A stretch of 64,000 nt of DNA from NCBI RefSeq assembly GCF_003018255.1, contig NZ_CP027440.1; one strand, 5' to 3'. Both the position numbers and the translations under genes were made by a program. The notes beneath the pieces are model-generated. The model was not told the DNA's origin and ran no database searches. It saw only the letters and a list, made by a program, of their open reading frames with translations. This document shows positions 7,385-62,425 of the stretch, piece by piece. The stretch comes from Escherichia coli. GTDB lineage: Bacteria > Pseudomonadota > Gammaproteobacteria > Enterobacterales > Enterobacteriaceae. Within the stretch, counting starts at the first letter, position 1. Every line of letters begins with the position of its first letter.

Positions 7385-7652
7385 AGTCAGCGAAGGGAAT
7401 GCTTCTGGCTTTTAACAGATAAAAAGAGACCGAACACGATTCCTGTATTCGGTCCAGGGAAATGGCTCTTGGGAGAGAGCCGTGCGCTAAAAGTTGGCAT
7501 TAATGCAGGCTTAGTTGCCTTGCTCTTTAAGAATAGATGACGACGCCAGGTTTTCCAGTTTGCGTGCAAAATGGTCAATAAAAAGCGTGGTGGTCATCAG
7601 CTTAAATGTTAAAAACCGCCCGTTCTGGTGAAAGAACTGAGGCGGTTTTTTA
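7385..7652 (+). ncRNA. ryeA: RyeA (SraC) small RNA, antisense to and fully overlapping SdsR
   Basis: Established locus organisation (RyeA encoded opposite SdsR between pphA and yebY). A plus-strand hairpin plus T-tract at about 7613-7651 can serve as its terminator. The 5' end is not determinable from sequence. Confidence 0.45.
7420..7523 (-). ncRNA. sdsR: SdsR (RyeB) sigmaS-dependent small RNA
   Basis: Minus strand reads GCAAGGCAACTAAGCCTGCATTAATGCCAACTTTTAGCGCACGGCTCTCTCCCAAGAGCCATTTCCCTGGACCGAATACAGGAATCGTGTTCGGTCTCTTTTT, which matches SdsR as I recall it. A CTATTCT -10-like element lies just upstream on that strand and a GGTCTC-T-tract terminator at the 3' end. Confidence 0.7.
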
Positions 7653-21964: not shown

Positions 21965-23407
21965 ATGTCCAGAAGGCTTCGCAGAACAAAAATCGTTACC
22001 ACGTTAGGCCCAGCAACAGATCGCGATAATAACCTTGAAAAAGTTATCGCAGCGGGTGCCAACGTTGTACGTATGAACTTTTCTCACGGCTCGCCTGAAG
22101 ATCACAAAATGCGCGCGGATAAAGTTCGTGAAATTGCCGCAAAACTGGGGCGTCATGTGGCTATTCTGGGTGACCTCCAGGGGCCCAAAATTCGTGTATC
22201 CACCTTTAAAGAAGGCAAAGTTTTCCTCAATATTGGGGATAAATTCCTGCTCGACGCCAACCTGGGTAAAGGTGAAGGCGACAAAGAAAAAGTCGGTATC
22301 GACTACAAAGGCCTGCCTGCTGACGTCGTGCCTGGTGACATCCTGCTGCTGGACGATGGTCGCGTTCAGTTAAAAGTACTGGAAGTTCAGGGCATGAAAG
22401 TGTTCACCGAAGTGACCGTCGGTGGTCCCCTCTCCAACAATAAAGGTATCAACAAACTTGGCGGCGGTTTGTCGGCTGAAGCGCTGACCGAAAAAGACAA
22501 AGCAGACATTAAGACTGCAGCGTTAATTGGCGTAGATTACCTGGCTGTCTCCTTCCCACGCTGCGGCGAAGATCTGAACTATGCCCGTCGGCTGGCACGC
22601 GATGCAGGATGTGATGCGAAAATTGTTGCCAAGGTTGAACGTGCGGAAGCCGTTTGCAGCCAGGATGCAATGGATGACATCATCCTCGCCTCTGACGTGG
22701 TAATGGTTGCTCGCGGCGACCTCGGTGTGGAAATTGGCGATCCGGAACTGGTCGGCATTCAGAAAGCGTTGATCCGTCGTGCGCGTCAGCTTAACCGCGC
22801 AGTAATCACGGCGACCCAGATGATGGAGTCAATGATTACTAACCCGATGCCGACGCGTGCAGAAGTCATGGACGTAGCAAACGCCGTTCTGGATGGTACT
22901 GACGCTGTGATGCTTTCTGCAGAAACTGCTGCTGGTCAGTATCCGTCAGAAACCGTTGCAGCCATGGCACGCGTTTGCCTGGGCGCGGAAAAAATCCCGA
23001 GCATCAACGTTTCTAAACACCGTCTGGACGTTCAGTTCGACAATGTGGAAGAAGCCATTGCCATGTCAGCAATGTACGCGGCTAACCACCTGAAAGGCGT
23101 TACGGCGATCATCACCATGACCGAATCGGGTCGTACCGCGCTGATGACCTCCCGTATCAGCTCTGGTCTGCCAATTTTCGCCATGTCACGCCATGAACGT
23201 ACGCTGAACCTGACTGCTCTCTATCGCGGCGTTACGCCGGTGCACTTTGATAGCGCTAATGACGGCGTAGCGGCTGCCAGCGAAGCGGTTAATCTGCTGC
23301 GCGATAAAGGTTACTTGATGTCTGGTGACCTGGTGATTGTCACCCAGGGCGACGTGATGAGTACCGTGGGTTCTACTAATACCACGCGTATTTTAACGGT
23401 AGAGTAA
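21965..23407 (+). CDS. pykA: Pyruvate kinase II
   Basis: 480 aa from [20 protein letters not shown]; the ORF track has a 47-codon upstream extension that is unlikely to be real. Confidence 0.9.
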
Positions 23408-38618: not shown

Positions 38619-38721
38619 ACTGCCGGATGCGGCGTGAACGCCTTATCCGGCCTACAAAACCTTGCTAATTCAATATATTGCAGGGACTATGTAGGCCTTA
38701 TAAGCATAGCGCATCAGGCAG
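38619..38721. repeat. REP pair (BIME) between cmoB and torZ
   Basis: TGCCGGATGCGGCGTGAACGCCTTATCCGGCCTAC, then an inverted copy (GTAGGCCTTATAAGCATAGCGCATCAGGCA); followed by a GC hairpin plus T-tract at about 38731-38758. Confidence 0.6.
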
Positions 38722-42632: not shown

Positions 42633-43468
<836 letters not shown>

Positions 43469-56170: not shown

Positions 56171-56197
56171 TTATCGGCAAGGAAGGGGGAAACTTTA
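56171..56197 (-). promoter_or_regulatory. sigma28 (FliA) class 3 promoter of the tar-tap-cheRBYZ operon
   Basis: Minus strand TAAAGTTT, 11-nt spacer (cccccttcctt), GCCGATAA; a perfect match to the sigma28 consensus about 30 nt upstream of the tar start. Confidence 0.7.
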
Positions 56198-59703: not shown

Positions 59704-60587
59704 GCTTCCTCGGTTGTCGTCTGTTGTTGCGGATTTTTCACCGCACGCACATGCTCTTCCAGTTCAATAAACGACGGACGTTCGCTGGAATAGAGCGTTT
59801 TGCGACCAAACTCAACGGCGATAGGCGGTGCGTAACCGTTCAGATTAGATAGCAGTGTGACTTTGACGCACTGCATCATTTTGCTGGTTTCGGCGCTTTT
59901 CTGACGTAAAACACTCGCTAATGGGGAAATAAATCCGTAAGCCAATAAAATACCGAGGAAAGTCCCCACCATCGCATGTGCGATAAGCGCCCCCAGCTCG
60001 GCGGCAGGACGATCGGCTGAACCTAACGCGTGAACGACCCCCATTACAGCCGCAACAATACCAAACGCCGGAAGTGAGTCCCCGACCAGCGCCAGACTGT
60101 TCGCCGGGACTTCTGCCTCGCTTTCGTGCGTCTCAATCTCTTCATCCATCAGAGCTTCGATTTCGAAGGTGTTCATGTGACCGCTGATAATCAGGCGCAG
60201 ATAATCGACGATAAATTCAAGCATGACGCTATCCGCAAGGATGCGTGGGTAGCTGGCGAAGATCTCGCTCTCACGGGGATTTTCAATATCACGTTCCAGC
60301 GAAAACATCCCCATCTGCCGCGATTTCGCCATCAACCGATAAAGCAGAGCCAGCAGATCCATATACATTGCTTTGGTGTATTTGGAGCGACGAAACAGCA
60401 ACGGCAGCGCCTTCAGCGTGCCTTTAATCGCTTTGCCATTATTGCCGACGATAAACGACCCAATCCCTGCACCGGCAATAATCACCAGTTCAGCGGGTTG
60501 ATAGAGTGCTCCAAGGCTTCCACCGGTCATCAAATAACCGCCGAAAACTGTACCGAGAACAACCAGGTAACCTAATAAGATAAGCAC
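59700..60587 (-). CDS. motA: Flagellar stator protein MotA
   Basis: 295 aa; 4-nt overlap with motB. Confidence 0.95.
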
Positions 60588-60655
60588 GACATCATCCTTC
60601 CACTGTTGACCATGACAGGATGTTCAGTCGTCAGGCGTTAACACGCGATAGGGGC

Positions 60656-60749
60656 AAAAAAAAGCAGCGGTACGTCGTTACCGCTGCTGGAATGTTTCGC
60701 CACACCGTATCAGTTAAACAGCCTGTACTCTCTGTTCATCCAGCAGTTG
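60656..60749 (-). ncRNA. motR: Candidate MotR-like sigma28-dependent small RNA (motA leader transcript ending at an intrinsic terminator)
   Basis: A sigma28 promoter lies inside the flhC 3' coding region, followed about 60 nt downstream by a strong hairpin (GCAGCGGTAACGACGTACCGCTGC) and a run of 8 T before motA. The predicted RNA is about 94 nt. Confidence 0.45.
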
Positions 60750-61292
60750 TGGGATAATATCGGCAGGATTCTGGGAAAGTTTACGTCTTTTTACTGCCCG
60801 GGATGGCGGCTGACATAAGCTGCAGGCAAAGCTGCCAACAGGCTGGTGAGCGTGGGTAATAAAATTGCCGCCGCAGCAGTTGCAGCTGGAAAGTTGCAGT
60901 AATCCACTTTCAACAAACCGCACCAATGTCCAGGCACGGGTTAATGCCAGCAGCGGTCCCTCTTCTGCTTGCGGGCACTGTTCAAGGTATAAACGGTAGG
61001 CTTTGATCACCGCATCGACGCCATTACACAAACCGGTTTTCAGTAAAAACTGCCATGCGTTACAGAACATCGAAGCATGAACGTTTTGTTCCCAGGTCAT
61101 AAACCAGTCGGTTGAGAATGGCAGCATGCCTTTCGGCGGTGGGCTTCCGCGCAGTTCTTTATAGAGTTTTATCAGGCGTCCGCGACTTAACTGTGTTTCG
61201 CTTTCCAGCATCTGCAAACGAGCGCCCAGGGTGATCAATTCCATTGCCAGCTGAATATCCCGCGCTTCCTGAACAATGCTTTTTTCACTCAT
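60714..61292 (-). CDS. flhC: Flagellar master regulator subunit FlhC
   Basis: 192 aa with the C-terminal Cys4 zinc site (CNCCGGNF...CSLC). Confidence 0.95.
60757..60784 (-). promoter_or_regulatory. sigma28 promoter within the flhC 3' end (motAB-cheAW and MotR promoter)
   Basis: Minus strand TAAACTTT, 11-nt spacer (cccagaatcct), GCCGATAT; two mismatches to the sigma28 consensus. Confidence 0.6.
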
Positions 61293-61294
61293 GA

Positions 61295-61654
61295 TCAGGC
61301 CCTTTTCTTGCGCAGCGCTTCTTCAGGCTGATTAACATCATTCAGCAAGCGTGTTGAGAGCATGATGCCGGTATGAATTTGCTGGAGATCGTCAACGCGG
61401 GAATCTTGCGTCAACTGAGTAATCGTCTGGTGACTGTCAAAACGGAAGTGACAAACCAGTTGATTGGTTTCTGCCAGCTTAACCATTTGCGGAAGAGTCA
61501 GTGCCGCTAACGTTGTCGCCATTTCTTCATTTATGCCGAGACGAAACATAGCGGACGCTTTGTCCTGAACAATCAGACGCTGTGCAAGTAGTAAATATGA
61601 CAAGTTGATGTCATAAATGTGTTTCAGCAACTCGGAGGTATGCATTATTCCCAC
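61295..61654 (-). CDS. flhD: Flagellar master regulator subunit FlhD
   Basis: 119 aa as drawn ([28 protein letters not shown]); the true start may be the internal MHTSELL (116 aa). Confidence 0.95.
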
Positions 61655-62425
61655 CCAGAATAACCAACTTTATTTTTATGCGGTCTCACCGCACCCCGTG
61701 ATGTCGCCGGGAAGCCCCGGTAAAAAATAATTAGCATTAGAATAGTTGCGATAAGCTGCAATAGGCAGAGCCCCTTTGTGGGATTTAATAAGTCCTTACA
61801 AATAGAAGGGGTTCTTTACACTTATCTAAGATTTTTCCTAAATCGACGCAACTTTACTCGTCACTACACGCACATACAACGGAGGGGGGCTGCGATTTTC
61901 AATAATGTGTGATGCAGATCACACAAAACGCTCAATTACTTAACATAAATGTATAAGTCATACTTTTGTTTTGGGTGTATTTCAATCTGTTAAAAAGTTT
62001 TTCGCGACGCTAGCAAGCAAAAATGAAACAGGAATAATAGAAATGGGATGTTGCGCACAGTTAAAATAACTCACCGTAAATAATCATCTGCTATAAATAA
62101 TTGCTTTAATGCAATACCAGATAAGCTATTTTTAAACAGACACTTACTGCACAACAAACTAATTAAATACAAAGAAAGGCAACAATCAACTTAATGTTGA
62201 TAAAATGTTTTACATATATTAACCACTTGTTTAATATGGAGAATCAGTACATTATTTTCTTATAATTACAGTTGAAATCATATGATCACCGAGAGTGATT
62301 GATTAATTGTATTTACTAATAATCACGCTAATATTTACCTGTTTGACTGAGTTGGGATTGCGTCGTTTCTCCATTAGGAGTAAAGCTTTAATGTCACCTG
62401 AAGTTCACAGAATAAGGAACAGGTT
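61655..62425. promoter_or_regulatory. AT-rich divergent regulatory region of flhDC and uspC, with no IS insertion
   Basis: 771 bp noncoding and visibly AT-rich; flhD and uspC diverge from it. No transposase ORF or IS terminal inverted repeats are visible. Confidence 0.6.

Follow-up and report, generated by a model that had tools for sequence, protein, structure and literature searches.

The window analyzed here, a stretch of 64,000 nucleotides of Escherichia coli DNA, carries at 60750..60656 of its minus strand a region that is almost certainly motR, which encodes the already described and annotated E. coli small RNA MotR. An earlier note on this DNA had called a MotR-type, sigma28-dependent small RNA derived from the motA leader. 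This call was correct, as indicated by the 93/95 identity to the published MotR and by a span equal to that of the RefSeq feature b4828, and fliA dependence has been published; but motR had already been described and annotated, so that, as submitted, the finding is a rediscovery. Beyond the known motR, the new leads are a candidate cis-acting antiterminator in the motA leader and a series of natural alleles of the MotR seed region.

The locus would work as follows. RNA polymerase with sigma28 (FliA) would initiate at A60750, within the 3' end of flhC, and a share of the transcripts would end at an intrinsic terminator 95 nt downstream, generating the Hfq-binding MotR. The remaining transcripts would pass the terminator and become the motAB-cheAW mRNA, and the class-1 flhDC transcript would be ended by the same hairpin, 26 nt past the flhC stop codon. 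We infer that the window strain behaves like K-12 in these respects and, from the analyses below, how the read-through may be set.

The motR locus and its promoter inside flhC

The minus strand of the window holds, in this order, flhD, flhC, a 126-nt spacer, motA, motB and cheA. The features of the locus that frame motR are the following:

61292..60714, minus strand: flhC, with its stop codon at 60716..60714
60783..60776, minus strand: sigma28 (FliA) -35-type element TAAACTTT, in flhC codons R170-K171-L172-S173, identical to the K-12 motif bound by FliA in ChIP-seq
60764..60757, minus strand: sigma28 -10-type element GCCGATAT, in flhC codons A177-D178-I179
60656..60750, minus strand: motR small RNA, 95 nt, with +1 at A60750 and the last U of the 3' end at 60656
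60588..60655, minus strand: rest of the motA 5' leader, present in read-through transcripts only, up to the motA GTG
60587..60585, minus strand: motA start codon GTG

The published MotR, taken from the in vitro transcription sequence in the supplement of PMC10578931, aligned with 60750..60656 without gaps and with 93/95 identical positions. The promoter, the +1, the terminator and the U-tract were identical between the window and K-12. In agreement, RefSeq annotates the ncRNA motR (b4828) of MG1655 at 1977208..1977302 on the minus strand of NC_000913.3, with a length of 95 nt and an overlap with the last 37 nt of flhC; in the window, MotR nt 1-37 likewise overlap the 3' end of flhC, stop codon included. 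Counted from the published +1 to the last U, the predicted transcript has 95 nt, close to the approximately 94 nt that had been proposed for it. A 241-nt query spanning the flhC-motA junction found matches in 5376/5426 complete E. coli genomes, with features annotated as flhC and motA, and MotR was present at at least 95% identity in 5376/5426 of these genomes. The synteny of flhC and motA was thus confirmed for the window locus, and the window must be part of the E. coli chromosome. The identity of the locus is established at the sequence level, and no result spoke against it.

Searched against Rfam 15, which holds no MotR model, the region matched no family, whether the cutoff was E<=1 or the gathering score; moreover, motR is not annotated in PGAP-annotated genomes. 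Both facts together probably explain why motR looked like a discovery. The equilibrium fold of the whole 98-nt stretch gave z = -2.5, a value dominated by the terminator and uninformative on alternative folds. We also considered a leader peptide starting from the AUG at MotR nt 12-14. This candidate was rejected, because it lacks a Shine-Dalgarno sequence and because other genera do not conserve its stop position.

The promoter TAAACTTT-N11-GCCGATAT (60783..60757) has two mismatches to TAAAGTTT-N11-GCCGATAA, with a spacing of 11, and exactly 70 nt separate the beginning of its motif from the end of the flhC stop codon. The claim of a near-consensus sigma28 promoter inside the final 70 nt of flhC was therefore borne out. 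When matches with up to three mismatches were allowed, the 64-kb window contained three, compared with 0.49 expected, and 0/100 shuffles reached this number. Another of these matches is perfect and lies at 56197..56171 on the minus strand, where we would expect the tar promoter. The third, at 22216..22242 on the plus strand, has three mismatches, including some in the -10 core, and is probably a chance occurrence. Between the terminator and motA, the scan of the minus strand detected no other sigma70- or sigma28-like promoter, and on these grounds we rejected the idea that motA has a further promoter past the hairpin. By its motif and position, the promoter is a sigma28 class-3 flagellar promoter upstream of the late flagellar operon motAB-cheAW.

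Experiments in K-12 have shown that MotR is sigma28-dependent and that motA depends on this promoter. The MotR promoter was placed within the flhC coding sequence, where it also serves motAB-cheAW (Melamed et al., eLife 2023, PMC10578931), and the MotR level was lower in a fliA deletion (PMC10578931). A FliA ChIP-seq site with exactly this promoter motif was reported by Fitzgerald et al. 2014 (PMC4183435), and the window promoter is the same sequence as that bound K-12 site, TAAACTTTCCCAGAATCCTGCCGATATT. In the same study, the normalized expression values given as (flhC)motAB-cheAW were (107)1 when fliA was deleted, compared with (320)302 in the wild type (PMC4183435). The fall from 302 to 1 indicates that motA is wholly dependent on this promoter. 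Moreover, a flhC deletion complemented from a plasmid was non-motile, as the motA promoter was lost with the gene (PMC4183435). A later study described the intragenic motA promoter as a bacterial 'duon': no other FliA promoter is as conserved, and its -10 element constrains Ala177-Asp178 of FlhC (Fitzgerald et al., bioRxiv 10.1101/188474 / Mol Microbiol 2018).

For comparison across Enterobacterales, 80 flhC loci were fetched from different species and 79 of them were usable; these loci are phylogenetically related, and counts over them overstate independent support. The adjacency of flhC and motA, a spacer of about 115-145 nt and the GTG start of motA were general. The sigma28 motif was found at exactly -70 from the flhC end in 79/79 loci, with one to three mismatches. 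We then turned to synonymous sites in 70 ungapped flhC genes, one per species, restricting the analysis to codons with a conserved residue. Such codons had a mean entropy of 1.30 bits and only 3% of them were frozen. The -35 codons CGT-AAA-CTT and the -10 codons GCC-GAT had zero entropy in 70/70 species, underlining the conservation of the promoter.

The terminator and the end of flhDC transcripts

Two elements make up the 3' module of MotR:

60688..60663, minus strand: terminator hairpin AGCAGCGGUA / loop ACGACG / UACCGCUGCU, MotR nt 63-88
60656..60663, minus strand: terminator U-tract of 8 U, of which the first closes the stem; forms the expected Hfq-binding 3' module together with the hairpin

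The stem comprises 10 pairs, six of them G:C, if it is taken to include the initial U of the tract; otherwise it has 9 pairs and the tract 8 U. This is the 9-bp hairpin with 8 T that the earlier note had placed in the flhC-motA spacer, here located at 60688..60656. It starts 26 nt past the flhC stop codon and is the sole terminator-like element of the spacer. In the 3 kb scanned, there were 10 terminator-like sites, compared with 3.1 +/- 2.0 in shuffles, and this stem was the longest and the most G+C-rich of them.

A hairpin with a T-tract, giving a predicted RNA of 88-100 nt, was present in 75/79 of the compared loci, and one more (L067) gave 115 nt; in the remaining three, all from Serratia, no convincing terminator was found. 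The stem AGCAGCG...CGCUGCU is common to Enterobacteriaceae and Erwiniaceae, and Pectobacterium and Brenneria have a different hairpin in the same place. Among 65 distinct sequences, the lower 7 bp of the stem were invariant and compensatory changes were found at depths 8-10, namely G:C<->A:U, U:A<->C:G<->A:U and A:U<->U:A<->C:G. The comparative analysis hence identifies the hairpin and its U-tract as an intrinsic terminator, with a stem supported by these compensatory changes.

The proposal that transcripts from the sigma28 promoter either stop at this hairpin or read into motAB-cheAW agrees with the K-12 data: a band of about 95 nt is accompanied by longer bands attributed to read-through of the MotR terminator, and MotR arises from the motA 5' UTR, from the promoter shared with the operon (PMC10578931). 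In K-12, MotR co-immunoprecipitated with Hfq as a band of about 95 nt, and Hfq co-immunoprecipitation and RIL-seq data for MotR have been published for K-12, EPEC and Salmonella (PMC10578931). The window MotR has the 3' hairpin and U-tract typical of Hfq-binding small RNAs, and Hfq binding is thus predicted for it.

The further suggestion that the same hairpin also terminates flhDC was supported by the published values of 107 for flhC and 1 for motAB-cheAW in the fliA deletion. These values suggest that RNA initiated upstream of flhDC does not usefully reach motA, although in such expression data RNA decay is inseparable from termination.

A candidate antiterminator in the motA leader

Of the reading given in the earlier note, the terminator/antiterminator decision is the one part that is still an inference, although some read-through must occur. 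If the hairpin stops flhDC transcripts, the passage of sigma28 transcripts into motA calls for an account. The account that we favor, tentatively, is a cis antiterminator, which would refine the main explanation and not replace it. Its two strands are candidates:

60739..60746, minus strand: candidate antiterminator 5' strand CUGCUGGA, MotR nt 5-12, in flhC codons L183-L184-D185 (hypothesis)
60684..60691, minus strand: candidate antiterminator 3' strand UCCAGCAG, MotR nt 60-67, overlapping the first 5 nt of the terminator 5' arm

Once transcribed, nt 60-67 (UCCAGCAG) would pair with nt 5-12 (CUGCUGGA), and half of the terminator 5' arm would be occupied by this helix. Untranslated sigma28 transcripts would in this way partly escape into motA, and on flhDC transcripts the ribosomes translating flhC would occupy or separate the strands, so that these transcripts would stop. 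As the 5' strand is translated on the flhDC mRNA and untranslated on the sigma28 RNA, one hairpin could stop class-1 and pass class-3 transcripts. This would fit the asymmetry found in vivo, where sigma28 RNA reaches motA and flhDC RNA does not (PMC4183435).

The folding of the nascent RNA was consistent with such a helix. When the RNA was folded as nt 1-71 or 1-77, the nt 5-12:60-67 helix was part of the minimum-free-energy fold in both the K-12 and the window alleles, and 63/64 distinct sequences had it in their nascent fold. When the complete hairpin was available, the terminator state was predicted to be better than the antiterminator state by just 2.9-3.5 kcal/mol in E. coli, by -0.9 to +5.8 kcal/mol in 15 other loci from other genera, and by 12.9 kcal/mol in MotR*. 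The last is a derivative with nt 6-8 changed from UGC to GAG, which was found by chance and described as 'more abundant', with no explanation given (PMC10578931). The MotR* change removes the helix, taking the nascent fold from -19.9 to -9.8 kcal/mol, and a greater abundance is what would be expected if the helix normally lowers termination; MotR* could, on the other hand, merely be more stable. Folding alone is weak evidence for the antiterminator: when nt 1-59 were shuffled, the arm was still paired upstream with a mean probability of 0.65, and 1.6-1.8% of the shuffles matched the observed value.

Conservation adds further support. Perfect complementarity of at least 7 nt was present in 65/67 loci with this terminator type, reaching 10-11 nt in Erwiniaceae, counts that overstate independent support for the antiterminator since the loci are related by descent. 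Both strands are invariant, and hence no covariation supports the helix. The UCC at nt 60-62, which lies outside the stem and outside the pattern used for selection, was invariant beside the hypervariable nt 57-59 (0.95-1.7 bits). At the other strand, flhC codons 182-187 (CAA CTG CTG GAT GAA CAG; MotR nt 2-19) had zero entropy except for 0.11 bits at GAA, and no other run of synonymously frozen codons in flhC is as long. When all 10-nt segments of the last 240 nt of flhC were compared for complementarity to the spacer, nt 5-14 gave the unique peak, with 7.94 versus 4.82 +/- 0.55. In Pectobacterium and Brenneria, whose terminator is different, 5/6 loci showed a weaker pairing of the same 5' segment with the 5' arm of that terminator.

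The frozen 5' segment can also be read in another way. The terminator might be constitutively leaky, with a fixed fraction of transcripts passing and no decision involved, and the conserved 5' segment would then have another role, such as in promoter escape, in contacts with Hfq or RNase, in stabilizing the 5' end of the motA mRNA or as a second site for target pairing. In favor of this account, the segment is just as frozen in clades without the CCAGCAG partner, which counts against the antiterminator as the sole reason and indicates that the segment is also under another constraint. Moreover, there is evidence for a second MotR pairing region on fliC and rpsJ (PMC10578931), and the shuffle control described above is only modestly significant. 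A constitutive leak predicts, however, neither the invariant UCC nor the positional peak of complementarity. Efficient termination would be expected of a 10-bp stem with 6 G:C and 8 U after it. As flhDC transcripts are stopped almost completely in vivo (107 to 1), a substantial sigma28-driven expression of motA needs explaining, and we regard a plain leak as rather unlikely.

A third account places the control in trans: MotR would raise S10 (rpsJ), and S10-NusB would then promote antitermination at the motR terminator and in long flagellar operons. Classically, antitermination by S10-NusB concerns Rho-dependent termination and not a strong intrinsic hairpin, and the motR terminator, unlike that classical case, is a hairpin of the latter kind. 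In addition, the MotR-rpsJ duplex of the window allele is predicted to be 7 kcal/mol weaker, yet motAB-cheAW must be expressed in such strains. The autoregulatory loop through S10-NusB was stated explicitly, as speculation, by the authors who described MotR (PMC10578931), and the parts of their paper that bear on it report no boxA-like element at the motR terminator and no direct test there. We consider this control in trans improbable.

The cis antiterminator also has to accommodate an observation from the 'duon' study, in which cells were motile when a thyA cassette under a constitutive promoter took the place of flhC (bioRxiv 10.1101/188474). This suggests that the 5' strand is not strictly required under strong upstream transcription. 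No description of a motA-leader antiterminator was found in the searchable literature, outside of which most subscription-journal papers fall. Collectively, these data allow us to put forward, as a possibility short of an even chance, that the motR terminator is a conserved bistable switch, in which the frozen first 12 nt of the sigma28 transcript (flhC codons 182-185) would set the proportion of motAB-cheAW mRNA versus MotR. If this is true, it would provide a simple, testable mechanism for the expression of stator and chemotaxis genes through a strong terminator, and it would account for the transcriptional insulation between flhDC and motA and for the unexplained MotR* phenotype. Furthermore, the flhC 'duon' would be extended from a promoter to an RNA switch.

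Seed alleles, rpsJ pairing and relation to known systems

In K-12, MotR pairs inside the fliC and rpsJ coding sequences, raising the flagella number (PMC10578931). MotR thus links flagellar late-gene transcription to the expression of a ribosomal protein (S10) and to the number of flagella. The element involved in rpsJ pairing is the following:

60697..60708, minus strand: MotR seed region ACGGUGUGGCGA, nt 43-54, pairing with rpsJ 5'-GCGCUUCACUGU in K-12

The function of this seed has been shown experimentally in K-12: the M1 seed mutant abolished S10 up-regulation, and chromosomal M1 lowered the flagella number (PMC10578931). The M1 mutations, at MotR nt 46-48 and, in rpsJ, from UUCACUG to UUGUGUG, define a duplex of MotR 43-ACGGUGAGGCGC-54 with rpsJ 5'-GCGCUUCACUGU. 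Compared with the K-12 seed, the window has nt 49 changed from A to U (60702) and nt 54 from C to A (60697), and the M1 nucleotides GUG (nt 46-48) are intact. Both changes lie inside the published MotR-rpsJ duplex. The predicted energies of the rpsJ duplex were as follows:

K-12 MotR: -22.4 kcal/mol
A49U alone: -18.7 kcal/mol
C54A alone: -18.8 kcal/mol
window allele: -15.1 kcal/mol
M1 (loss of function): -11.2 kcal/mol

The rpsJ segment was identical in 5299/5425 genomes, indicating that the target does not compensate for the seed changes. The other published target, fliC, lies outside the window in this strain. Among 5376 E. coli genomes, an allele identical to that of the window was counted in 567 and the K-12 allele in 2897; the intermediate allele (U49, C54) also occurs, for example in O157:H7. 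The combination of U49 and A54 was found in other Escherichia, in Citrobacter and in Salmonella, and among 65 distinct sequences A49 was present only in the K-12-type sequence. With these outgroups carrying U49 and A54, the window allele is apparently the ancestral one, and the K-12 allele seems to have arisen in two derived steps, each adding a pair with rpsJ. The stepwise seed differences among natural E. coli alleles thus each change the predicted rpsJ pairing. According to the duplex energies, the rpsJ arm of MotR function may be weaker in the window strain, and the link to S10 known from K-12 may be stronger than in many wild strains, that of the window included.

When the locus is compared with K-12 MotR (b4828), the position, the promoter sequence, the +1, the terminator and the 95-nt length are all common to both, and the difference lies in the two substitutions within the published rpsJ seed duplex. 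The promoter is also the one of the motA 'duon' study (bioRxiv 10.1101/188474), and our synonymous-site analysis agrees with the constraint reported there. That study concerns the promoter; the frozen codons 182-187 are downstream of it and do not appear in the relevant passages of the study.

The arrangement resembles that of 5'-leader small RNAs generated by premature intrinsic termination and that of attenuators of the trp leader type, as a terminator lies between the promoter and the operon, stopping gives a short RNA and read-through gives the mRNA. The likeness may extend to a mutually exclusive upstream helix, for which we have a candidate: according to the computed folds, the nt 5-12:60-67 helix could form first and would exclude the terminator, and translation of flhC could bias the choice. 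The motR antiterminator differs in being predicted only, and the leader differs in overlapping the 3' end of the upstream gene and in encoding no leader peptide.

Finally, MotR belongs with UhpU, FliX and FlgO, which, like MotR, are FliA-dependent, Hfq-binding RNAs that originate from mRNA UTRs and affect flagellar synthesis (PMC10578931). The other three come from 3' UTRs, where UhpU has an internal promoter and FliX and FlgO arise by processing, whereas MotR is derived from a 5' UTR by premature termination and has its promoter in common with the downstream operon.

MotR seed alleles and the flhC codons above the motA promoter

Within the MotR seed (nt 43-54), which pairs with rpsJ in K-12, the allele comparison revealed two variable positions.

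60697 (nt 54) and 60702 (nt 49), minus strand: variable MotR seed positions

The E. coli allele samples (loci L083-L086) formed a stepwise series, from U49/A54, the allele of the window, through U49/C54 to A49/C54, the K-12 allele, and at each step the predicted duplex with rpsJ, whose target site is invariant, gained one base pair. Besides this series, the sole MotR variant in the sampled genomes was found at nt 77, in the terminator loop. Further upstream, the synonymous sites of flhC codons V167-K168 (GTA AAA; window 60789..60794, minus strand), which sit just upstream of the -35 element, were invariant in 70 of 70 species; possibly the promoter extends into these frozen codons, or has a UP-like element there. 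When scanned in 10-nt windows, the A-run of the same codons stood out as a smaller, second maximum in complementarity with the spacer, and this was attributed to a putative pairing with the terminator U-tract.

Exceptional loci among relatives

The flhC-motA spacer of three Serratia loci (L071, L077 and L081) contained no MotR-type terminator with a U-tract. This spacer was longer in the three loci, at 144-218 nt, and a strong hairpin was observed directly 3' of the flhC stop codon, followed in L071 and L081 by a UCCAG motif. From these sequences, a MotR-like short RNA may be absent in Serratia, or made differently. In Escherichia albertii (L002), the complementarity between nt 5-12 and nt 60-67, the candidate antiterminator helix, was broken, making it one of only two such loci with an AGCAGCG-type terminator; its A63>C change also abolishes the terminator closing pair. 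The flhC 3' end of Enterobacter cloacae DSM 26481 (L069) was different and longer: the gene has 203 codons, of which the flhC match covers only residues 1-173. Measured from the promoter, its stop codon is displaced downstream by 34 nt, so that the last 10 nt of the ORF already belong to the hairpin. A frameshift or an error in the assembly may account for this aberrant end.

The flhD-uspC region

61655..62425: flhD-uspC intergenic region, about 770 bp

When compared with the MG1655 annotation, where IS1H lies upstream of flhDC, this region of the window lacked the element and is thus uninterrupted. From the coordinate offset, AsflhD, an antisense RNA (b4839 in MG1655), is predicted to lie at about 61624..61843 (plus strand).

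Other small RNAs and the tar-side sigma28 promoter

Elsewhere in the window, Rfam matches were taken at the gathering score, and those listed here are already known E. coli sRNAs.

42634..42941, minus strand: MicL
7417..7561, plus and minus strands: SraC/RyeA and SdsR/RyeB pair
38656..38698, plus strand: ES036

The motif scan also detected a sigma28 promoter of perfect consensus.

56171..56197, minus strand: sigma28 promoter, TAAAGTTT-N11-GCCGATAA

Rfam C0465 (56187..56264, plus strand) overlaps this site in antisense orientation. The site corresponds to the published FliA promoter of tar-tap-cheRBYZ, and it differs by one spacer base from the K-12 promoter listed in Fitzgerald et al. 2014 (PMC4183435).
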